Source: Escherichia coli (lineage in GTDB: Bacteria; Pseudomonadota; Gammaproteobacteria; Enterobacterales; Enterobacteriaceae). Taken from it: a stretch of DNA of 64,000 nt. Where the stretch lies: the NCBI RefSeq assembly GCF_044324875.1, contig NZ_CP172186.1. One strand, written 5' to 3'. The notes under the pieces are model-generated. The model was not told where the DNA came from. It did no database searches and worked only from the letters and a program-made list of their open reading frames with translations. Positions 1,953 through 64,000 of the stretch are shown piece after piece (positions within the stretch are counted from its first letter, which is position 1; the number at the start of each line of letters is the position of its first letter). The position numbers were made by a program, and so were the translations under genes.

Positions 1953-2699
1953 GTTTTTCCAGCTCTTACGGTGTATTACCTCCGCTTTGTAAAGGCCATT
2001 GATGCTCTCCGCCATCGCGTTGTCATACGAGTCACCAGTACTTCCTGTTGATGCCAGTAATCCGGCTTCCTTAAGCCGCTGTGTGTAGGCCAGCGATACA
2101 TACTGAGAACCTTTATCACTGTGATGGACTGTGCCGGACGGTCGACGGGCCCATAACGCCTGCTCCAGAGCATCCAGCACGAATGTCGTTTCCATAGACG
2201 ATGAGACCCGCCACCCCACGATGTATCCGGCAAACACATCAATGATGAACGCCACATAGACGACCCCCTGCCATGTGCTGACGTAAGTAAAATCAGCCAC
2301 CCACAACTGGTCAGGACGTTCTGCCACAAACTGACGGTTTACGCGGTCGCCTGCGGCAACGGCTTTCCGGCTGACGGTAGTGCGGACCTTTTTACCCCGG
2401 AGAACACCGGCAAGTCCCATAACCGCCATGAGGCGCGCCACTGTACATCTGGCTACCCTGATTCCTTCCCGTAACAACTGACGCCAGACTTTACGCACAC
2501 CGTATACCTGATGATTCCCATCGTATACGCGCAGTATCTCTTTCTTCAGCCAGTCATCGCGCTGCGCACGGGCACTGCGTTTATAAGGATGATGTCGCTG
2601 TTGCTGACAGTGGTAATACGTTGACGGGGCAATATGTAGTTCACTGCATACCGGTCCGACCCCGTACAGCTTACGCAGCTTATCCAGCAGTGGCATCAC
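1953..2699 (-). pseudogene. IS3-family transposase OrfB, C-terminally truncated
   Basis: About 95 percent identical to orfB at 15556-16401 up to ...EVIHRKSWKN, then reads into IS66 sequence (tracked ORF 1899-2699). Confidence 0.8.
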
Positions 2700-3022
2700 T
2701 TTTTCCAGAGGCGGTCGAACTCCGCCTTCGCAAAATAAGCGGAAGCCTGGCGAAGGATATCGTTACTGCGGCGCAGTTCACGATTTTCACGTTCCAGCTC
2801 TTTCAGACGCTGACGTTCAGCGGTGGTGAGCCCGCCATCACCGCCTCCGGTATCCCGCTCATGCTGGCGTACCCAGACACGCAGAGTCTCCGGTGTACAG
2901 CCAATCTTTGGGGCAATGGAACAAATTGCCGCCCACTGTGAGTCATATTCGCCCTGACTTTCCAGAACCATACGAATCGCCCTCTGACGGACTTCGGGGG
3001 AAAAACGAGTATTTTTAGTCAT
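2696..3022 (-). CDS. IS3-family transposase OrfA (HTH)
   Basis: 108 aa [15 protein letters not shown]..., near-identical to 15208-15534 and 58909-59235. Confidence 0.9.
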
Positions 3023-3076: not shown

Positions 3077-3631
3077 GTTTATGAAAACATATCATCATTC
3101 ATTCGAGATGTTTTTATACACTCTGAAGAAAATGATCTCATTCCTGATTTTCTTAATTCGACATTCGTTGACTGGGATGATGCAAAGTACATGACAGAAA
3201 GTATGAGCTTCGTACTGGAAGAAGTATCAGTTATCCTGAACAAAGAGAATACCGAAACAACAGAAATTTCTTATGATCAAAACCTGTATTCACTTCTGGC
3301 TCATCATAATCATATTACCCCTTGCTGGAATAATGTTATTTCTCTACTGAGTGAAGATGCGTCACTTGCTGGTGATACTTTTTGTAAGTGGCTTAATATT
3401 AATTATTCTTTATTGCCAAATGACTCGTTGCCTTTGACTGATGTTCAGTTCTCGCAATTACTTATTAAGGCTGTTACATCACCTCATATCAGTAAAGAAG
3501 CGTTAATAGCGATAACCATGGCATTTAGGATAACTCTTATTAATGTACCAGAAAACTTACCACTGAATAATGCTGCGGTACTAATCAAGCAAAAATGGCT
3601 GGCACCAACCAGTACTGTGTTTGAACAACTT
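3077..3631 (+). pseudogene. Internal fragment of a low-GC gene of unknown function, truncated 5' by IS629-like and 3' by IS1
   Basis: Frame of tracked ORF 3191-3658 is open upstream to the IS boundary at 3076 and its stop codon lies inside the IS1 IR; AT-rich composition. Confidence 0.4.
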
Positions 3632-3962: not shown

Positions 3963-4384
3963 CCTCGCGCATACAGCCGGGCAGTGACGTCATCGTCTGC
4001 GCGGAAATGGACGAACAGTGGGGCTATGTCGGGGCTAAATCGCGCCAGCGCTGGCTGTTTTACGCGTATGACAGGCTCCGGAAGACGGTTGTTGCGCACG
4101 TATTCTGTGAACGCACGATGGCGACGCTGGGGCGTCTTATGAGCCTGCTGTCACCCTTTGACGTGGTGATATGGATGACGGATGGCTGGCCGCTGTATGA
4201 ATCCCGCCTGAAGGGAAAGCTGCACGTAATCAGCAAGCGATATACGCAGCGAATTGAGCGGCATAACCTGAATCTGAGGCAGCACCTGGCACGGCTGGGA
4301 CGGAAGTCGCTGTCGTTCTCAAAATCGGTGGAGCTGCATGACAAAGTCATCGGGCATTATCTGAACATAAAACACTATCAATAA
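3881..4384 (+). CDS. insB: IS1 InsB (expressed as InsAB' by frameshift)
   Basis: 167 aa, overlapping insA in -1 frame. Confidence 0.9.
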
Positions 4385-4399
4385 GTTGGAGTCATTACC

Positions 4400-4542
4400 T
4401 AACAAGAGATAAAATCCCCTTCTATATGCTTTCAAAAAATAGTATAAATCGTTATTCTGATATGAGTGATTTTATTCAATCCAATAATGAAACAACTCCA
4501 GAAAAGGCATTTATTAAAGAAGTTATGGGAACAGGGGACTGA
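4400..4542 (+). pseudogene. 3' remnant (about 46 codons) of the gene that preceded mcbG, truncated by IS1
   Basis: Frame is open from the IS1 junction to a TGA 4 nt before the mcbG-like start (...PEKAFIKEVMGTGD*). Confidence 0.35.
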
Positions 4543-4545
4543 CAC

Positions 4546-5109
4546 ATGGATATAATAGAAAAAAGAATCACAAAACGACACCTCAGTGAAAGTAAATTAT
4601 CAGGTGTAAATTATTACAATTGTATATTTGAACGAATACAGCTTGACAACTTTAACTTTCGCGATTGTGAGTTCGAAAAATGTCGCTTCGTAAACTGCTC
4701 AATAAAGAATTTAAAACTTAATTTTTTTAAACTTATTGACTGTGAATTCAAAGATTGTTTATTACAAGGAGTAAATGCAGCAGACATTATGTTTCCCTGT
4801 ACTTTTTCTCTTGTAAATTGTGATTTGAGATTTGTTGATTTTATTAGTTTACGGTTACAGAAATCTGTTTTTTTATCCAGTCGCTTCCGTGATTGTTTAT
4901 TTGAGGAAACAGACCTTCGTAAATCTGATTTTACTGGTTCGGAGTTTAATAATACAGAGTTCAGACATTCTGATTTGTCTCACTGTGATTTTTCAATGAC
5001 AGAAGGTCTCGATATAAATCCTGAGATAAACAGGATCTTATCTATAAAGATACCACAGGAAGCAGGTTTAAAAATACTTAAACGAATGGGAGTGGTTGTA
5101 GGGGGATGA
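4546..5109 (+). CDS. mcbG: Pentapeptide-repeat protein, McbG-like (microcin B17 immunity / gyrase protection; Qnr-like fold)
   Basis: 187 aa; MDIIEK... N-terminus and LGVVVGG C-terminus as in Qnr/McbG proteins; tandem pentapeptide repeats (CEFEKCRFVNCSIKNLKL...); AT-rich. Confidence 0.6.
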   Translation: MDIIEKRITKRHLSESKLSGVNYYNCIFERIQLDNFNFRDCEFEKCRFVNCSIKNLKLNFFKLIDCEFKDCLLQGVNAADIMFPCTFSLVNCDLRFVDFISLRLQKSVFLSSRFRDCLFEETDLRKSDFTGSEFNNTEFRHSDLSHCDFSMTEGLDINPEINRILSIKIPQEAGLKILKRMGVVVGG

Positions 5110-15207: not shown

Positions 15208-15534
15208 ATGACTAAAAATACTCGTTTTTCCCCCGAAGTCCGTCAACGGGCAGTTCGTATGGTTCTGGAAAGCCAGGGCGAATATGACTCACAATGGGCG
15301 GCAATTTGTTCCATTGCTCCAAAGATTGGCTGTACGCCAGAGACCCTGCGTGTCTGGGTTCGCCAGCATGAGCGGGATACCGGGGGCGGTGATGGTGGGC
15401 TCACCACCGCTGAACGTCAGCGTCTGAAAGAGCTGGAACGCGAAAATCGTGAACTGCGCCGCAGTAACGATATCCTTCGCCAGGCTTCCGCTTATTTTGC
15501 GAAGGCGGAGTTCGACCGCCTCTGGAAAAAATAA
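15208..15534 (+). CDS. IS3-family transposase OrfA
   Basis: 108 aa [26 protein letters not shown]... Confidence 0.9.
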
Positions 15535-15555
15535 TGCCACTGCTGGATAAGCTGC

Positions 15556-16401
15556 GTGAGCTGCAGTGAGCTGCATATTGCCCCGTCAACGTATTACCAC
15601 TGTCAGCAACAGCAGCATCATCCTGATAAACGCAGCGCCCGTGCGCAGCGTGATGACTGGCTGAAGAAAGAGATACAGCGCGTATACGATGAAAATCACC
15701 AGGTGTACGGTGTGCGTAAAGTCTGGCGTCAGTTGTTACGGGAAGGTATCAGAGTGGCCAGATGCACTGTGACACGTCTTATGGCGGTTATGGGTTTTGC
15801 CGATGTTCTCCGGGGTAAAAAGGTCCGCATTACCGTCAGCCGGAAAGCCGTTGCCGCAGGCGACCGCGTAAACCGTCATTTCGTGGCAGAACGTCCTGAC
15901 CAGCTGTGGGTGGCTGATTTTACTTACGTCAGCACATGGCAGGGCTTTGTTTATGTGGCGTTCATCATTGATGTGTTTGCCGGATACATCGTGGGATGGC
16001 GGGTCTCCTCGTCCATGGAAACGACATTCGTGCTGGATGCACTGGAGCAGGCGTTGTGGGCCCGTCGTCCATCTGGCACCATCCATCACAGCGATAAAGG
16101 CTCTCAGTATGTATCGCTGGCCTACACGCAGCGGCTTAAGGAAGTCGGATTACTGGCATCAACAGGGAGCACAGGCGACTCGTATGACAACGCGATGGCG
16201 GAGAGCATCAATGGTCTTTACAAGGCGGAGGTAATACACCGTAAGAGCTGGAAAAACCGGACAGAAGTGGAGCTGGCTACACTCACGTGGGTGGACTGGT
16301 ATAACAATCGACGATTGCTGGAAAGGCTGGGCCATACTCCCCCGGCAGAAGCAGAAAAAGCTTATTATGCTTCCATCGGAAACAATGATCTGGCAGCCTG
16401 A
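15556..16401 (+). CDS. IS3-family transposase OrfB (DDE; made as OrfAB fusion by -1 frameshift)
   Basis: 281 aa; tracked start is an alternative codon downstream of the frameshift window. Confidence 0.85.
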   Translation: MSCSELHIAPSTYYHCQQQQHHPDKRSARAQRDDWLKKEIQRVYDENHQVYGVRKVWRQLLREGIRVARCTVTRLMAVMGFADVLRGKKVRITVSRKAVAAGDRVNRHFVAERPDQLWVADFTYVSTWQGFVYVAFIIDVFAGYIVGWRVSSSMETTFVLDALEQALWARRPSGTIHHSDKGSQYVSLAYTQRLKEVGLLASTGSTGDSYDNAMAESINGLYKAEVIHRKSWKNRTEVELATLTWVDWYNNRRLLERLGHTPPAEAEKAYYASIGNNDLAA

Positions 16402-38920: not shown

Positions 38921-41581
38921 GTGCGCCGTTGAAGCGCGGTGTTTTATGGAGTGTTGCCTGAAAAGCAACATGGCTTAGTGGTATAGCCATTGCATACTGT
39001 GGTTAGCCTTGCTTGGTAACAGGCTCGGAGATCCTGAAAAGGAGAGGTGAACATAGCATCCACAGAAAAGGGTGGTGAATATGGAAATCGTTATAAGTAT
39101 CACCATTCAATGCAAGATGTATATGGATAAACTGGGTTTGTTGAAGTCGAGATCTATGTGGGAAACAGGAAACCAATAACGCAGAACGATTGAAGCGTTA
39201 TTCCCGTACTAGCACAAGAAATCCGTCCGACGTTGATTGTGACCACTCTAACGGGCCAGCTATTGATGAAATAGTTAAACGATCGAAAGACATCCTAAGT
39301 ACATCGCATCTCCACACCGTGAAACTACGGGACTACCTAAACTGGATTTATACCCAGCATGGTAGCGGAGTCTCCATAGTACTCAAGGTCGGCCTGTAAT
39401 GGGTTCCGGCAGTCCGCATTATACGGAAGCAGCAAAGGTATAAATCAACCGGAAGGAAGATGAAAGCCTCACAGTGCTGCGGGGAAGGGAGACAGTTGTT
39501 AGATACATCAATCTCTAAGAGGAGGGTTAGCCAATGCTGCCTGATGAACTTGAGAAAAGATTAGATGGAATTGAGGATGCTTCAAAAAAAGGGTATCCAG
39601 TACGTAATCTATACAAAATTGCGTGTGAGCCCGGACTGTGGCTGCAAGCCTACGTGAATATACGGGCCAATGCAGGTGCACTGACTCAAGGTGTATCAAC
39701 AGATACCATTGATGGCTTTTCTATCGAAAGAGCAGAGAAGCTGGCAAAAACATTGCGGAGTAGAGAATACGTAGCGAAACCTGTACGCAGAGTTCAGATC
39801 CCAAAAAAGGACGGAAAAACCAGACCGCTGGGGATTCCAGGTGGAGACGATAAACTGGCGCAAGAAGTAGCAAGAATTATTCTGGAAAGGGTTTATGAAC
39901 CAGTATTCTCTGAACACTCTCATGGATTCAGACCAAAACGTTCGTGTGAAACTGCGCTCAGATCTATTCGTCCAGTCTGGAACGGAGTTAAATGGATCGT
40001 GGATGTTGATATCAAAGGTTTCTTTGACAATATCCCCCACAAACTATTGCTGAATACACTGGCAGAGAAAATTAAGGATAAGAATTTCCTGAAATTAATC
40101 GAACAGTGGCTGAAGGCAGGATATGTGGACAATTGGAAATACCATCGCTCATATTCTGGCACGCCACAAGGTGGGATAATTTCTCCCTTACTGGCAAATA
40201 TATACCTCGACAAACTGGACCGTTTTGTAGAACAGAATTTAATTCCTGCATATACAAGCGGTACAAAACGAAGAGCGAATCCAGATATGAACAGGCTGGC
40301 CCATAAGATTCATAAACTACGAAAGAAAGTAGACGGTATGGCAACTGATTCTGAATCAGAAAAAGAAGCCATAAAGAAAGAAATTGAACGACTGCTTGAA
40401 GAAAAACGTTCTATACCATCTCAGGTCATGAACGATCCAAACTTCAGGCGTATGTACTATGTTCGATATGCTGATGACTTCGTAATCGGTGTCATCGGCT
40501 CGAAGAAAGATGCTGAACATATATCAAGACAGGTCAGAAACTTTATTACTACTTCACTGGGATTGGAAGTTAATGAAGCAAAGACCAGGATCCGCCATAT
40601 CTCAGAAGGAGTTAATTTTTTAGGCTATGAAATCAGACAGGCAGATGCAAAGAAATTGCTGAAGCAGAAAATGCAAGGGCGGCACGCTCTCCGGAGATCC
40701 ACCACAGGAATTGTGCAGCTCTTCGTTCCTGACAATATAGCCGCTAAATTTTGTCACCAAAAGAAATATGGCTGTTATGAGAATGTGAAGGCTGTACATC
40801 GTTCAAGTCTACAAAATCTCAGTGAAGCTGAAATTGTTCTGACTTTCAACGCGGAAATGCGCGGATTGGCGAACTACTACAGTCTGGCGCTGGACATGAA
40901 ATATAAATTATCAAAATTATATTTCATATGGCAAATAAGCCTTTTTAAGACCCTGGCGAATAAACGACGTAGTTCAGTGAATAAAGTCGCCAAATCGCTA
41001 CGGCAAAATAATGGAGATCTGGCTATTACCGTTCAGGCCAAAAATGGATCCCGAAAGATTGAGGTTTTCAAACTCAAACATGTCAATCGCAACCGAACAA
41101 CGATTGTCGATACGGAACCGAGAACCGCACATATCACAACCCGCACAACAGAGATCATGCGTCGATTAGGGGCAAGGATCTGCGAGTATTGTGCGAAGAC
41201 TGGGCGCTGCGAAGTACATCATGTCAGAAAGCTAAAAGACCTGAAGAAAGGTCGTAAGGCCGGATATAAACCCAGCTTGTGGCAACTAATGATGATCGCA
41301 CGCCGCCGGAAAACGATGATTTTGTGCGCAAGTTGCCACGACAAGTTACATAGCGGAAAACTACCCGATTTGAGACAGGAAAAGGGAAGAATACTCCTGC
41401 AACCACCTGTCTCAAGCGGGGATTCTGCTAAATGAGTTTATCCCCAATAAGCTAGCAATGGAGAGCCGTATGCACTGAAAGGTGCACGTACGGTTCGGAG
41501 GGGGGGTAACGGTGATCTAACTCAAGATAAGCAGGACATATTCGCCATTTATCTTGAAAGACCACACGTACCCTACCCTAC
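38921..41581 (+). mobile_element. Group II intron (2661 bp) inserted in ssb
   Basis: 5' GTGCG, 3' ...AC; domain V-like hairpin GAGCCGTATGCACTGAAAGGTGCACGTACGGTTC at about 41462; encodes RT/maturase/HNH protein; flanking exons splice in frame. Confidence 0.85.
39534..41435 (+). CDS. Group II intron-encoded protein (reverse transcriptase - maturase - HNH endonuclease)
   Basis: 633 aa; RT motifs incl. YADDFVIGV; C-terminal HNH CEYC...HHV...CASCHDKLH. Confidence 0.9.
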   Translation: MLPDELEKRLDGIEDASKKGYPVRNLYKIACEPGLWLQAYVNIRANAGALTQGVSTDTIDGFSIERAEKLAKTLRSREYVAKPVRRVQIPKKDGKTRPLGIPGGDDKLAQEVARIILERVYEPVFSEHSHGFRPKRSCETALRSIRPVWNGVKWIVDVDIKGFFDNIPHKLLLNTLAEKIKDKNFLKLIEQWLKAGYVDNWKYHRSYSGTPQGGIISPLLANIYLDKLDRFVEQNLIPAYTSGTKRRANPDMNRLAHKIHKLRKKVDGMATDSESEKEAIKKEIERLLEEKRSIPSQVMNDPNFRRMYYVRYADDFVIGVIGSKKDAEHISRQVRNFITTSLGLEVNEAKTRIRHISEGVNFLGYEIRQADAKKLLKQKMQGRHALRRSTTGIVQLFVPDNIAAKFCHQKKYGCYENVKAVHRSSLQNLSEAEIVLTFNAEMRGLANYYSLALDMKYKLSKLYFIWQISLFKTLANKRRSSVNKVAKSLRQNNGDLAITVQAKNGSRKIEVFKLKHVNRNRTTIVDTEPRTAHITTRTTEIMRRLGARICEYCAKTGRCEVHHVRKLKDLKKGRKAGYKPSLWQLMMIARRRKTMILCASCHDKLHSGKLPDLRQEKGRILLQPPVSSGDSAK

Positions 41582-54699: not shown

Positions 54700-54890
54700 A
54701 TCAAAAACTGACTCCTGGCAGGGCTGCGCCCTGCCTCTGCCGTCTGCATAAGACTATGATGCACAAAAATAACAGGCTATAATGGCATGAAAAACGGGAC
54801 AGGATGTGTAATCGTATAACCGCGCACGCACGGCTATACGATTACCACCTGGTCAGGGCTTAGCCCCGACACCCCGGTAAGGAGCAGACC
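54700..54890. other. oriT-like region upstream of nikA
   Basis: 11-bp inverted repeat GTAATCGTATA / TATACGATTAC (54808-54845) immediately upstream of nikA-nikB. Confidence 0.5.
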
Positions 54891-58908: not shown

Positions 58909-59235
58909 ATGACTAAAAATACTCGTTTTTCCCCCGAAGTCCGTCAACGGGCAGTTCGTATGGTTCTGGAAAGCCAGGGCGAATATGACTCACAATGGGC
59001 GGCAATTTGTTCCATTGCTCCAAAGATTGGCTGTACGCCAGAGACCCTGCGTGTCTGGGTTCGCCAGCATGAGCGGGATACCGGGGGCGGTGATGGTGGG
59101 CTCACCACCGCTGAACGTCAGCGTCTGAAAGAGCTGGAACGCGAAAATCGTGAACTGCGCCGCAGTAACGATATCCTTCGCCAGGCTTCCGCTTATTTTG
59201 CGAAGGCGGAGTTCGACCGCCTCTGGAAAAAATAA
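58909..59235 (+). CDS. IS3-family transposase OrfA
   Basis: Identical to 15208-15534 product. Confidence 0.9.
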
Positions 59236-59256
59236 TGCCACTGCTGGATAAGCTGC

Positions 59257-60102
59257 GTGAGCTGCAGTGAGCTGCATATTGCCCCGTCAACGTATTACCA
59301 CTGTCAGCAACAGCAGCATCATCCTGATAAACGCAGCGCCCGTGCGCAGCGTGATGACTGGCTGAAGAAAGAGATACAGCGCGTATACGATGAAAATCAC
59401 CAGGTGTACGGTGTGCGTAAAGTCTGGCGTCAGTTGTTACGGGAAGGTATCAGAGTGGCCAGATGCACTGTGACACGTCTTATGGCGGTTATGGGTTTTG
59501 CCGGTGTTCTCCGGGGTAAAAAGGTCCGCATTACCGTCAGCCGGAAAGCCGTTGCCGCAGGCGACCGCGTAAACCGTCATTTCGTGGCAGAACGTCCTGA
59601 CCAGCTGTGGGTGGCTGATTTTACTTACGTCAGCACATGGCAGGGCTTTGTTTATGTGGCGTTCATCATTGATGTGTTTGCCGGATACATCGTGGGATGG
59701 CGGGTCTCCTCGTCCATGGAAACGACATTCGTGCTGGATGCACTGGAGCAGGCGTTGTGGGCCCGTCGTCCGTCTGGCACCATCCATCACAGCGATAAAG
59801 GCTCTCAGTATGTATCGCTGGCCTACACGCAGCGGCTTAAGGAAGTCGGATTACTGGCATCAACAGGGAGCACAGGCGACTCGTATGACAACGCGATGGC
59901 GGAGAGCATCAATGGTCTTTACAAGGCGGAGGTAATACACCGTAAGAGCTGGAAAAACCGGACAGAAGTGGAGCTGGCTACACTCACGTGGGTGGACTGG
60001 TATAACAATCGACGATTGCTGGAAAGGCTGGGCCATACTCCCCCGGCAGAAGCAGAAAAAGCTTATTATGCTTCCATCGGAAACAATGATCTGGCAGCCT
60101 GA
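59257..60102 (+). CDS. IS3-family transposase OrfB
   Basis: 281 aa. Confidence 0.85.
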   Translation: MSCSELHIAPSTYYHCQQQQHHPDKRSARAQRDDWLKKEIQRVYDENHQVYGVRKVWRQLLREGIRVARCTVTRLMAVMGFAGVLRGKKVRITVSRKAVAAGDRVNRHFVAERPDQLWVADFTYVSTWQGFVYVAFIIDVFAGYIVGWRVSSSMETTFVLDALEQALWARRPSGTIHHSDKGSQYVSLAYTQRLKEVGLLASTGSTGDSYDNAMAESINGLYKAEVIHRKSWKNRTEVELATLTWVDWYNNRRLLERLGHTPPAEAEKAYYASIGNNDLAA

Positions 60103-60141
60103 GTTCACAGACAAAACATTCTCCAGGAAACCCGGGGCGGT

Positions 60142-60603
60142 TCAGTTTTGCCATTCTACAACCTGCTCCATCACGGCATCGGTAACCTTTGATATCAGTG
60201 CCGGTGAAACATCTGCGTCATACAGTTCTTTGAACGCAGCGGCTATCTCACGGGTGGTCATCCCTTTGGCATACAACGAGAGGATCTGGTTATCCATCCC
60301 GGTAATACGGGTCTGATTTTTCTTTACCAGTTGTGGTTCGAAGGTACCGTCACGATCGCGCGGAGTACGCAGTTCCAGTGGACCGTCGCCTGTGATAACG
60401 GTCTTTGTGGAATAACCGTTGCGGGAGTTAGCTCCTGGTCTGGACTGATTTTTCTCATACCCAAGATGGTGTGTCATCTCTGCATTGAGAGCGGCTTCAA
60501 CGCTGAGCTTTTTCAGCAGCCGATCAAACTGACTGAGGTCTTCAGGGGTTTTGAGGTTTTTGGCCAGTTCGTTAGCCAGAGCCTGTAACTGTTTTTCGTC
60601 CAT
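60142..60603 (-). pseudogene. IS256-family transposase, N-terminal fragment
   Basis: MDEKQLQALANELAKNLKTPEDL...RNGYSTKTV...PRDRDGTFEPQLV...SLYAKGMTTREI mutator-family N-terminus; ends at the IS629-like boundary. Confidence 0.7.
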
Positions 60604-60689
60604 AAATTAACCTTCATTTGATGCTGGATTGAACATATCAAAATCAGGCAATTACACAAATCTATGTACAGGCTCTTCCGCTGGCTGGC

Positions 60690-60935
60690 TCACCTGCGTC
60701 GCGCCGGCTGCCAGGTAAACGTGTTCTCTGCGGCACGATACGCTTTTGTTCGTTGAGCCTTTGCGGTTCTCGCTTTGCGCTCTGCCCGAATCATTCTCAA
60801 AACTTTTACACGCACTTTTCTCTTAACTTCCCGTGGCAGTTCATCCCTGCCGGACAACTTTAACTGTGCAGCCTGTGCGGCATAAGCATCGTTGATACGC
60901 TTACGTTCTGCTTCCGTCAGTTTCATCCAAGACAT
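60690..60935 (-). CDS. Hypothetical basic protein
   Basis: 81 aa ORF; Lys/Arg-rich. Confidence 0.3.
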   Translation of the reverse strand: MSWMKLTEAERKRINDAYAAQAAQLKLSGRDELPREVKRKVRVKVLRMIRAERKARTAKAQRTKAYRAAENTFTWQPARRR

Positions 60936-61073
60936 AATTCCTCCTGGTGACTTATCCGTGTTATGTCTTTAATCTGTATCCCCTTCGTTGCTATGCCTCC
61001 GGGATATCAGGTATTACCTTTCGAAGAATTTTATAAAAAACCACCTGTGCAGAGGGAAAGAGTGGATTTGCCC

Positions 61074-61979
61074 CTATATTTCCAGACATCTGTTATCACT
61101 TAACCCATTACAGGCCCGCTGCCGCAGATATTCCCGTGGCGAGCGATAACCCAACGCACTATGCGGATGCCATTCGTTATAATGCTCGAACGCCTCTGCA
61201 AGGTTCTTTGCTGCCGTTAACCCGTCTGGTTTGGGCATGACACTGATGTAGTCACGCTTTATCGTTTTCACGAAGCTCTCTGCTATGCCGTTACTCTCCG
61301 GACTCCGCACCGCCGTGTTCTTCGGTTCAAGCCCCAACATCCGGGCAAACTGCCGTGTTTCATTAGCCCGGTAGCATGAACCATTATCCGTCAGCCACTC
61401 TACTGGAGACGCCGGAAGCTCGTTGCCGAAGCGGCGTTCCACCGCTCCCAGCATGACGTCCTGTACTGTTTCACTGTTGAAGCCGCCCGTAGTGACCGCC
61501 CAGTGCAGTGCCTCACGGTCACAGCAGTCCAGCGCGAACGTGACTCGCAGTTTTTCTCCGTTATCACAGCGGAACTCGAACCCGTCAGAGCACCATCGCT
61601 GATTACTTTCTTTCACAGCCACTCTGCCGGTATGTGCCCGTTTCGATGGCGGTACAGCGGTTTTTCGCTCAAGCAACAGCGCATTCTGGCGCATGATCCG
61701 GTAAATACGTTTGGCATTGATCGCAGGCATACCATCAAGTTCTGTTTGTCTGCGAAGCAGCGCCCATACCCGACGATAACCATATGTGGGTAGCTCTCCG
61801 ATAACATGGTGTATACGGCGAAGCACATCCGTATCATCCGTGTGACGGCTGCGGCGGCCGTCCTTCCAGTCATCGGCTCGTCTGAGAATGACGTGCAACT
61901 GCGCACGCGACACCCGGAGACAACGGCTGACGAAGCTTACTCCCCATCCCCGGGCAATAAGGGCGCGTGCGCTATCCAC
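61074..61979 (-). CDS. insD: IS2 InsD
   Basis: 301 aa. Confidence 0.9.
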
Positions 61980-62302
61980 TTTTTTGCTCGCCCATATTCA
62001 ACGGCTTCTTTAAGGAGTTCATTTTCCATCGTTTTTTTGCCGAGCAGACGCTGGAGTTCTTTAATCTGCTTCATGGCGGCAGCAAGTTCAGAGGCAGGAA
62101 CGATCTGTTCTCCGGCAGCCACAGCAGTAAGACTTCCCTCCTGGTATTGCTTACGCCAGAGAAATAGCTGGCTGGCTGCCACACCATGTTGCCGGGCAAC
62201 AAGGGAGACCGTCATTCCCGGTTCAAAGCTCTGCTGAACGATAGCGATCTTTTCCTGTGTAGTACGCCGTCTGCGTTTCTCCGGCCCTAAGACATCAATC
62301 AT
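61937..62302 (-). CDS. insC: IS2 InsC
   Basis: [24 protein letters not shown]...; ATG at 62302. Confidence 0.9.
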
Positions 62303-63528
62303 CTGTTCTCCAATGACTAGTCTAAAAACTAGTATTAAGACTATCACTTATTTAAGTGATATTGGTTGTCTGGAGATTCAGGGGGCCAGTCTAAAGAGTA
62401 AGGAACTTACTGATTCATTTAATATTATTATCCATCAATAACTGAGCATACAAAAAAATAACAAAACTCTGACACAGATACAACCAGCTCTCTCTATATC
62501 AGACTGACATTCTTCTCAAAAAGAGGCGTGTTCTGGAACACGGAACAGAAGCAATGAACATTGTAGACAGAAACACACTCTGTTTTTTACACGAGGATAT
62601 ATGTCGGGAAAATCAGGCAGAAGAAATTAAAGGACTTTGTGCATACAAAGGGAAAGCGCGTTTCCGGTGCACCATATTAGATATTATCCCTGCTACAAAC
62701 ACCAGAGACGCGCTCATAACTCTTCTAGCGTAAAATATCCTTTCAGGCAAGGAAAAGGTCGTGATACAGAATCACGACCTTAATTTTATCGAAAACACGG
62801 ATTTTAGTATGCACATGACTGTACTCCTCAGGAGTACAGGGAAATCATAATCAGTAACAAAAACACCCGGCAACAAAAATTTAACGCGTTTACGCTATTT
62901 TTGTGACAAATATTGCAAATATGGAATCACTGTATTTTTACTGCAACAAAATCTGGTTGATCCACAGGCGGATCCGGGGTAAAAAATTATCCGGAATGTT
63001 TCTGCGTGGTGTGGTAAAACCTCTAGCCGGATTGCCTTTGCAGCAACGCAGGAACATTCCATCCTTTATCAGTACTCCTGACGCTGTAAAGACCTGGCTG
63101 ATGCAGACAGGACTGCTGATATCGAATCAAAGCTTTCTCATTTTTTCGCGTACACAAAATAAAACAAATCAGGCAATTCCTTACACTCCCCCTCTAAAAT
63201 TGAGGGTTTTTTTTTACCATATAAATTACTTGCACAGCTTTTAAAAAAATTGCAAATCTTTACTGTAGTGTCGGGCTTCATGTAGCTCAACAGGGCATGG
63301 ACTAAAAAGAAGTAAACCCATCTTTTATCTCCCTGATATGGGGGTCTTTGTGGCATAAAGAATTCCTTGAATTATTATTTTGATCATATCAACATGAAAA
63401 GAATAATACTCTGACTTTTGATTTCCAGTGCCAGATATAAAATCAAATTCACTGTAAATATCACATAATGATATCTGGCTGCCCCCAGTCACTTCCTGTA
63501 TTCAGCCACACATATAAGCCCCCTGAAT

Positions 63529-63565
63529 TTCCTTGTGGTTTTTATGTGATAAAAACCACAAGGAA
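63529..63565. repeat. Perfect 16-bp inverted repeat with 5-bp spacer in an AT-rich non-coding region
   Basis: TTCCTTGTGGTTTTTA-tgtga-TAAAAACCACAAGGAA. Confidence 0.7.
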
Positions 63566-63656
63566 ACGATGGTTGAAATAATATTTAAAATGTGAAAGAT
63601 ATCACCCGTAGAATTTTTCAATCCGACACTCCATAGAATGGACCTTTAAGATTTAA

Positions 63657-63683
63657 TCCTCATCATGTATGAGGATTTTTTTT
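63657..63683 (+). terminator. Possible rho-independent terminator
   Basis: TCCTCAT-catgt-ATGAGGA followed by T8. Confidence 0.35.
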
Positions 63684-63981
63684 CTGGCAGACAAAAATAT
63701 CTTTTCAGCAATCCCTGTTCAGTTCCGGTTCTGGTGACTCTGGAAGAGGTATTGTTACACGCTATAACCTGCCGGAATGACTCAGGTCCGTTCATCTCTG
63801 ATACCATTAAAAGAAGCATTAAGCACATTCTGAGCGCCTCTTACAGAAGAAGCGGAACGCGTTCCTGGCTCCTGTTGCATAATCTTACTAACCCCATGGT
63901 TTTCTTGACTGCCAGAAACGCGCCCACAGTTTTTTTAGCCTGTCTCCGGTTCCTTGTCTAGAATACTGTTGATTTTTTGTT

Positions 63982-64000
63982 TGAACCGCCCCGGGTTTCC
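63982..64000 (-). mobile_element. Terminal IR of a further IS3-family (IS629-like) copy, cut by the window end
   Basis: TGAACCGCCCCGGGTTTCC equals the reverse complement of the right ends of copies B and C. Confidence 0.55.

Follow-up and report, generated by a model that had tools for sequence, protein, structure and literature searches.

In a stretch of 64,000 nucleotides (nt) of Escherichia coli DNA (contig NZ_CP172186.1), which we refer to as “the window”, we have analysed the 1.6-kb region located at positions 62394-63981, between a copy of the insertion sequence (IS) IS2 and the end of a second IS. The region appears to be a partly disrupted, IS-bracketed copy of a module that encodes no protein and would most likely be a cluster of small non-coding RNA genes, carried on both strands; we hold this reading at about even chances. 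The module would be native to small mobilizable plasmids of the Col type (ColE1-like MOBP5 and pIGWZ12-like MOBQ41), from which it would have been captured into IncK2/Z plasmids. Its putative units would be the following: two inverted arm units, in each of which an unstructured 20-mer leads into a Rho-independent terminator and a U-tail, i.e. the layout of trans-acting Hfq-type small RNAs (sRNAs); the minus-strand unit S1 of about 90 nt, which would run from a promoter through a 5' hairpin and the most conserved block of the module to a terminator; a plus-strand core at 62993-63120 with two covarying hairpins, which would run into the right-arm terminator; and a further plus-strand unit, called T4, that consists of a hairpin followed by T8. 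Among the options raised in an initial annotation of the DNA, that of a small RNA gene fits best, given the hairpin and U-tract units of arm/T2, T1 and T4 and a core that covaries in three lineages. We infer from the sequence that the units are transcribed, on which strands, and that they act as RNAs.

A protein-free module on three plasmid backbones

The window matches, at 99-99.9 %, the IncK2/Z-type conjugative plasmids of poultry-associated E. coli, where the stretch, with nikA-nikB-mazEF on one side and trbC/B/A on the other, invariably has ISs around it. Positions 62395-63926 (about 1.5 kb) have a counterpart of about 79 % identity in ColE1-family plasmids of 5.7-8.9 kb, where it is unannotated. 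These plasmids hold rop, mbeA-D, exc1/2 and a colicin operon, and in them the module is placed between the mob genes and cer; the homology with the small plasmids stops at 63926. A profile search has revealed a distant relative in Col8282-type plasmids, with about 54 % identity over the best-aligned segment of about 500 nt. These carriers belong to the pIGWZ12-like, cryptic MOBQ41 plasmids, whose backbone of 4.07 kb holds rep, mobA, mobC and a single hypothetical gene (PMC6856555); where the “empty” plasmid pSE11-6 has about 200 bp between mobA and rep, the carrier has 1,672 bp of non-coding DNA instead. Since it is found on IncK2/Z, ColE1-like and MOBQ41 plasmids, three backbones unrelated to one another, the module is a cargo that encodes no protein; the small plasmids that bear it are typed as mobilizable, the ColE1-like ones as MOBP5. 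The initial annotation had also allowed for a plain intergenic spacer with no conserved counterpart, whereas counterparts do exist in related plasmids, and for a part of an adjacent module outside the window, whereas ISs bracket the stretch on both sides and its relatives are the ColE1-like and MOBQ41 plasmids.

All statements on conservation and covariation refer to three independent lineages, i.e. the window (IncK2/Z), the ColE1-like plasmids (L5/L005) and the MOBQ41 plasmids (L7/L007). The conservation is patchy and modular: compared in bins of 40 nt, the window and the ColE1-like lineage agree at 48 to 98 %, and the order of the blocks is A-B-C-D in the window and B-D-A-C in the MOBQ41 plasmids.

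The module occurs in 36 of 5426 complete E. coli genomes, on plasmids only. Module-positive genomes, most of which come from poultry, usually have it on several co-resident plasmids (median of 2 places, maximum of 7-8), with the IncK2/Z, the 8.9-kb ColE1-like and the MOBQ41-type plasmids residing together, for example in strains LH50-c, LH10-b-1, TUM1886, GF43 and 135. There were 0 real matches in the scan of the GTDB species genomes and 0 matches in that of IMG/VR; a phage origin of the module, for which no match was found, has been rejected. The JGI metagenomes contain no lineage beyond the same three. With neither an Rfam family nor a description in our literature searches, the module appears to be undescribed, although it is of a familiar kind and of narrow distribution.

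As the initial annotation had stated, the stretch is AT-rich (38.9 % GC, against 52 % in the window and 53 % in IS2) and non-coding. Its homopolymeric A/T tracts, also reported there, are A7 at 62452 and 63243, T9 at 63207, T8 at 63676 and T7 at 63930. The longest open reading frame (ORF), of 113 amino acids (62903-63244), has a frameshift in a related lineage; there is no conserved ORF of more than 48 amino acids in the stretch, the only conserved ones being of 23-48 amino acids, and the six-frame translations give no match to Pfam or NCBIfam. A decayed coding sequence has been rejected on the same grounds, i.e. empty family scans and no conserved ORFs. The records CP070395 and AR_0085 annotate a hypothetical protein over 62903-63244/63289 on the plus strand; being frameshifted in the related lineage and having no family match, the coding sequence at 62903-63289 has probably been called in error across the structured core. 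A 26-amino-acid ORF (MGLLLFSPCPVELHEARHYSKDLQFF; 63241-63321, minus strand), preceded by a Shine-Dalgarno-like GGGAG, is located within a 98 %-conserved block and overlaps hairpin T3; here the conservation of the DNA is too high for coding to be judged, and the peptide is only partly hydrophobic. No conserved small hydrophobic ORF, as expected of a type I toxin-antitoxin system, is present in the stretch.

The left boundary of the stretch is the result of an insertion: IS2 is flanked by a 5-bp target duplication, read from the sequence as AAGAG, at 61058-61062 and 62394-62398, so that it must have entered a once-continuous sequence, and to its left the homology with the small plasmids L004, L005 and L007 goes on across the insertion site.

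Candidate RNA units and conserved structures

The comparison of the three lineages has revealed five hairpins with 49 pairs in total, of which 91.4 % of the cells are paired, against 39-51 % in slid controls; 10 of the pairs are doubly changed, against 0-3 in the controls. The hairpins H1 and H2 are the best-supported predicted structure of the module (Table 1). Both have doubly compensated pairs, three of them in H1, and neither has a broken one; the mismatches of H1 are G.T on the plus strand only, some of them becoming C.A on the minus strand. The consensus fold of the core has an energy of -28.1 kcal/mol with a covariation term of -3.1 on the plus strand, against -25.4 and -0.2 on the minus strand; likewise, the region 62740-63216 folds with z = -5.2 on the plus strand, with the centroid near the minimum free energy structure, and with z = -3.9 on the minus strand, where the centroid is poorly defined. 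Downstream, the core continues into T2, the terminator of the right arm (63190-63215). A covariance model of H1 and H2 finds exactly one copy per module-bearing plasmid and no further copy over the 64-kb window, the IncK backbone included. Upstream of the core, a TGTGA-N6-TT(G/A)CA motif resembles what we take to be the consensus of a CRP half-site, and is kept as a lead only.

The arm unit, of about 80-120 nt, is present twice in the window, the left copy being made up of 61000-61062 and 62399-62485, and once in the MOBQ41 plasmids. When it is read in the orientation of the terminator, it conserves no structure other than a GC-rich hairpin with a U7-U9 tract behind it; the 20-mer directly in front of the hairpin (AAAUCAGG.A.UUCCUUACAC) is unstructured and strongly conserved. 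This layout of terminator and single-stranded 20-mer is found in five paralogous or orthologous arm copies. The promoter-like site of the left arm consists of a -35 box TTGTAT (62483-62478), a 17-nt spacer and a -10 box TATTTT (62460-62455); the boxes are identical in the three lineages, and the homology stops exactly there. In the window, IS2 separates the left-arm 20-mer from its terminator, while ISEc12 is inserted in T2 in plasmid L006 (overlap at 63197-63204). A processing stalk formed by the two arms through long-range pairing has been rejected: the arms are only about 75 % complementary, and on inspection their differences are uncompensated between lineages.

On the minus strand, the candidate unit S1 contains the most conserved block of the module (62778-62805, CCTTAAwwTTATCGAAAACACGrATTT), located between the hairpins H0 (62819-62839) and T1 (62755-62781), which are both kept in all lineages with differing sequences and compensatory changes. 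The tail of T1 on this strand is U4CCUU in the window and U6 in both L5 and L7, and the fold z-score of the unit is -3.46. Its promoter-like site (-35 TTGCCG at 62873-62868, 18-nt spacer, -10 TATGAT at 62849-62844) has a score of 10.0; at the same position, the ColE1-like lineage has TTGATA, an 18-nt spacer and TATGAT with a score of 10.1, though the -35 box falls in poorly conserved sequence, and no such site is seen in the third lineage. Two promoter-like sites score at least 10, against 0.37 expected per strand. Another promoter-like site on the minus strand, located in the 98 %-conserved block at 63245-63344, consists of TTGAGC (63290-63285), a 17-nt spacer and TACAGT (63267-63262).

The hairpin followed by T8, which had been noticed in the initial annotation, is confirmed at 63655-63677 and 63676-63683, and is one of six intrinsic-terminator-like sites of the stretch, against 1.2 expected. 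The terminators T1, T2, T4 and those of the arms are conserved in the orthologues; except in T4, this conservation includes compensatory changes. The T4 unit, which would end at this hairpin, is not unusual in its fold by itself and has a weak inner promoter-like site (TTAAAA, 18-nt spacer, TAGAAT; 63585-63614).

The inverted repeat that had been singled out in the initial annotation is indeed perfect, with arms of 18 nt, not 16 bp, at 63528-63545 and 63549-63566, 100 % complementary and separated by a 3-nt loop. It is no product of chance, as the longest perfect stem in 300 composition-matched simulations is of 11 pairs. As a headline feature it does not hold: it is not conserved, and it is disrupted by IS1 in sister plasmids. 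It is located in the least conserved segment of the module, in a sub-segment of 48-55 % identity; the ColE1-like lineage lacks 7 nt of the left arm and has a divergent right arm, and among all fetched loci the palindrome is confined to plasmids of the window lineage. In a subset of otherwise near-identical plasmids, IS1 is found in its right arm, with the 9-bp duplication AAAACCACA (63552-63560). Positions 63417-63550 are weakly shared with the MOBQ41 plasmids. Being lineage-restricted, in the least conserved segment and split by IS1 in sister plasmids, the palindrome is real and non-random, but recent and dispensable. Its simplest and most likely origin would be a templated (quasi-palindrome) mutation that has copied the right arm onto the left, and, as far as sequence comparison tells, it is outside the conserved machinery and not part of the functional core.

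ISs have repeatedly landed in hairpins or terminators of the module: IS2 in the left arm, ISEc12 in T2 and IS1 in the palindrome. In the metagenome contig L038, an IS3-family element abuts the identical boundary, 62394. The repeated landing may reflect a target preference, or a tolerance of insertions at these spots.

Table 1. Features of the stretch and its surroundings, with positions in the window.
Feature	Positions	Strand	Description
ORF81	60690-60935	-	Small basic protein of 81 amino acids; strong Shine-Dalgarno sequence (AGGAGGAATTATG); adjoins the module in the ancestral arrangement; independent gene
Left arm, left part	61000-61062	-	Degenerate terminator hairpin and T-run; homology with L004, L005 and L007 across the IS2 site
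IS2	61063-62393	-	Inserted in the left arm, between the conserved 20-mer and the terminator
Left arm, remainder	62394-62485	-	Promoter-like site, then conserved 20-mer (AAUCAG.AAGUUCCUUAC); 98 % against L5; also in MOBQ41 plasmids
Candidate small RNA unit S1	62745-62873	-	Promoter-like site, H0, conserved block, T1 and U-tail
TGTGA-N6-TT(G/A)CA motif	62902-62917		Conserved in all three lineages (alignment)
Hairpin H1	62993-63060	+	15-bp stem; loop with invariant GUAAA..CUCUAGCCGGAU.GC.UUU; 100 % paired in all lineages
Hairpin H2	63066-63120	+	Closing AUCAG/CUGAU; 100 % paired in all lineages
Right arm	63137-63223	+	Inverted paralogue of the left arm: 20-mer 63163-63186, T2 hairpin 63190-63206, T9 63207-63215
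98 %-conserved block	63245-63344		Minus-strand promoter-like site; 26-amino-acid ORF (63241-63321, -); hairpin T3 (63330-63344)
Least conserved segment	63355-63566		48-75 % identity; holds the 18-bp inverted repeat
T4 unit	63568-63683	+	Block of about 115 nt, 92-95 % conserved; ends in perfectly conserved hairpin 63655-63677 and T8 63676-63683
Module D	63842-63926		12-bp conserved inverted repeat CGCGTTCCTGGC (63858-63869) / GCCAGAAACGCG (63911-63922)
End of flanking IS3-family element	from ~63982 (63982-64000)	-	TGAACCGCCCCGGG...; identified from sequence; IS3 family transposase annotated in L002

Weight of the RNA reading and its alternatives

Several points weigh against a cluster of small RNA genes. 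The covariation statistics are thin because there are only three independent lineages, and the expression of the units as RNA is predicted from their sequence alone. No convincing plus-strand promoter has been found for the H1-H2 core or for the T4 unit, and the promoter score of the arm, 6.7, is at chance level; apart from the other arm, the window contains no complement of the arm 20-mer. The stretch has no Rfam match, and the order of the blocks differs between the backbones, as described above. Moreover, the copy in the window may have lost its activity in part or altogether, since IS2 splits its left arm and its module D is truncated.

Among known RNAs, the closest likeness is with the trans-acting sRNAs of the Hfq type: the arm, S1 and T4 units are of 65-120 nt, with an unstructured conserved stretch located 5' of a GC-rich hairpin and a U-tract, and S1 has a candidate sigma-70-like promoter, at the same position in two of the three lineages; unlike those sRNAs, the module has no Rfam family, and the promoter-like sites of its arm and T4 units score weakly or no better than chance. 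RNAI/RNAII of ColE1 and Rcd, encoded at cer, share the host plasmids, the short terminator-ended non-coding RNAs and the antisense-like inverted arrangement, whereas the module also occurs on Rep_3/iteron plasmids that have no RNA-primed replication. ROOL, GOLLD and similar large RNA families of plasmids and phages are likewise protein-free and structured and are found on mobile elements, and 62740-63216 folds below shuffled controls; in contrast to them, the module has no Rfam match at E <= 1, a conserved structure that, beyond two adjacent hairpins, consists of local stems with no supported long-range architecture, and a very narrow taxonomy.

If the units are RNA genes, the module could further be a long-maintained cargo, kept without any protein on the three backbones, whose RNAs would target, in trans, the host or helper plasmids of the IncI/K type; we regard this extension as unlikely, while giving it some weight. 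Were it true, the RNAs could favour the carriage or the mobilization of small plasmids, and there would be an accessory trait that is encoded purely by non-coding RNAs, including an undescribed motif, H1-H2, with its invariant CUCUAGCCGGAU loop. Small cryptic Col plasmids are abundant in enterobacteria, and some relatives are near gene-free (e.g. a plasmid of 4.4 kb with only rep annotated); if the module that they share with an IncK2/Z plasmid of the resistance type gives functional RNAs, these would help to explain the persistence of such small plasmids, and would add a plasmid RNA family that no annotation pipeline reports. The copy in the window would itself be an IS-trapped, partly disrupted passenger.

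The alternative that survives best, though we think it unlikely, is that the copy in the window, and perhaps the module as a whole, is a functionless remnant, i.e. decaying hitch-hiker DNA between ISs, the similarity of which would reflect common descent only. The ISs that flank and enter the module (IS2, IS1, ISEc12 and the ends of IS3-family elements), its rarity, the shuffled order of its blocks and the lack of securely identified promoters are all consistent with decay, but at 54 % identity H1, H2, T1, H0 and T2 are kept by compensatory changes while short blocks are invariant, and 1.5-1.7 kb of extra DNA are retained on very small, high-copy backbones.

The invariant blocks (TTATCGAAAACACG, TGTGA-N6-TTGCA, CTCTAGCCGGAT and TTTCTGGCAG), together with terminators that face outward at both arms, could instead point to an element that works on the double-stranded plasmid, as protein-binding sites and/or as an array of terminators that insulates transcription. 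This we consider quite improbable: the compensatory changes of H1 and its G.T-only mismatches indicate a structure that is single-stranded and strand-specific, there are no repeated operator or iteron arrays, and no cognate protein gene accompanies the module.

The module could also be a signal in single-stranded DNA, namely a single-strand initiation (ssi) priming site or a single-stranded promoter on the strand that is transferred during mobilization; we consider this very doubtful. All three backbones are transmissible, the small ones being mobilizable and the IncK2/Z ones conjugative, and among helpers, plasmids with MPF_I (IncI-type) serve MOBQ4 plasmids best (PMC6856555), which counts in its favour. 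In addition, ColE1-like plasmids transfer the strand that carries the hairpins (nic of L005, minus strand), and DNA hairpins tolerate G.T pairs. The core of the MOBQ41 origin of transfer (oriT), on the other hand, is palindromic, and the transferred strand is probably the opposite one, as we presume by analogy with RSF1010. T-runs are conserved after the hairpins, which a DNA priming site would not need; the region of the window is located at the trailing end, beside nikB, and not in the leading region; and no stem carries -35/-10 boxes. The same holds for the comparison with ssi sites and Frpo, made without reference ssi sequences: they are likewise strand-specific, multi-hairpin non-coding elements of transmissible plasmids, but the orientation of the module relative to the transferred strand is inconsistent, and its T-runs are conserved.

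That the arm-bounded segment of about 830 bp is a miniature inverted-repeat transposable element (MITE), transposing between plasmids, is highly improbable: inverted arms of about 55-100 bp do bracket 61000-63223 and the module is found on three unrelated backbones, but the arms have no target-site duplication, diverge independently and do not resemble known IS ends, and the MOBQ41 plasmids have one arm only, with backbone DNA replaced and not cleanly interrupted.

Least credible, and largely refuted, is a replication or maintenance locus (an origin, a cer-like site for the resolution of multimers, or an antisense RNA that controls copy number, as in ColE1 or IncI/B/O/K/Z/F plasmids), to which an AT-rich non-coding plasmid stretch, an antisense-looking arrangement of the arms and a left-arm terminator (...GGTGGTTTTTT) that we take to be faintly like the 3' end of RNAI had lent some colour: genuine RNAI, iterons, MOBQ4 oriT and the cer core are all located outside the module, which has no direct-repeat arrays. 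The replication-associated locus of the initial annotation is thus not borne out, there being no iterons and no Rfam control RNA in the stretch and the replication and transfer origins (oriV/oriT) being elsewhere in the small carriers; nor are the control regions of IncI, B/O/K/Z and F plasmids, with which it had proposed a comparison, relatives of the stretch. No rep gene adjoins it, the neighbours on both sides being ISs.

Known elements located outside the module, and neighbouring features

Searches with Rfam give no RNAI, CopA-like or other match in 60000-64000 at E <= 1 and, over the whole window at the gathering score, only three ALIL pseudoknots and a group II intron; for an IncI/B/O/K/Z or IncF control region there is likewise no Rfam match, the coverage of every Inc RNA by Rfam being unchecked. 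The Rfam RNAI family (RF00106, 87 bits) locates the genuine RNAI of ColE1 outside the module in L004 and L005; a second ColE1-type replicon (RNAI/RNAII) has been rejected, as there is no Rfam match in the module and the order of the blocks is incompatible. An iteron origin has been rejected as well, with no direct-repeat family of more than three weak copies in the stretch; the iterons of L007 (4 x CCTTAAATCATATTGCCTTTAC) are located upstream of rep, outside the module. As for cer, the XerC/XerD core (GGTGCGTACAA-N8-TTATGGTAAAT) has 0 matches with up to 3 mismatches in the window and in the 5.7-kb L004, and occurs exactly in L005 at 3527-3556, just outside the module.

The module does not mimic an oriT of any of the three types: the ColE1 nic motif is not in the window, being exact at its expected place in L005 (7713-7730, minus strand); the MOBQ4-type oriT of L007 is located in the 178-bp mobC-mobA spacer, outside the module; and the IncK-type oriT region of the window itself is not similar to the module. 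The IncI-type nick-region core CACATCCTGTCCC, at about 54796-54808 on the minus strand, is located beside an inverted repeat (ATCGTATAACCGCGCACGCACGGCTATACGAT), upstream of nikA (about 54892), and is presumably the oriT of the plasmid itself. A mazEF pair follows nikB in the matching record.

The loop of H1 had seemed to us to resemble the shufflon site sfx (Rci), a reading rejected with no match at up to 3 mismatches. There is no tRNA or transfer-messenger RNA, and no conserved or convincing LexA, sigma-54, Tus-Ter, IHF, DnaA or ArgR box or leader peptide was found by eye; a CsrA sponge has been rejected, also by eye, the counts of GGA being near expectation.

Intact homologues of ORF81, the gene to the left of the module, with 69-84 % identity, adjoin rop on 3.9-kb ColE1-like plasmids; because these plasmids lack the module, ORF81 is not a fixed partner of it. 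The gene is frameshifted or IS-split in small-plasmid lineages (8.9-kb plasmids). Its family is tiny, with 9 database clusters that are all hypothetical, and has homologues also in Salmonella.

The window is very rich in ISs, three IS3-family copies being marked by the ALIL frameshift pseudoknots (2625-2741, minus strand; 15489-15575 and 59190-59276, plus strand). The catalytic domain of the group II intron, at 41461-41581, comes right after an ORF of 633 amino acids (39534-41435, plus strand).

Some pIGWZ12-derived carriers, i.e. L011 (pGF43-E, 4394 bp) and the 5.3-kb L009 and L010, are near gene-free, and retain the final 60 nt or so of mobA together with the non-coding module. Since only rep, or rep and a LysE-family gene, is annotated in them, most of their DNA is unexplained.

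An element of about 45 nt (GTTGACATCCTCCATGCCCTGAAGGACGGGGTTTTACGGCG), absent from the window, occurs in L007 at 4251-4293 and, inverted, at 4520-4563, and in L004 and L005 immediately beside the left arm, on its left side. The L007 query matches more than 1000 PLSDB plasmids, most of them, including plasmids of about 60 kb, through this element; taken with its adjacent sequence, the element also matches Shiga toxin (Stx)-converting phages, at 2-4 places in each record. It has the appearance of a short, widespread repeat.

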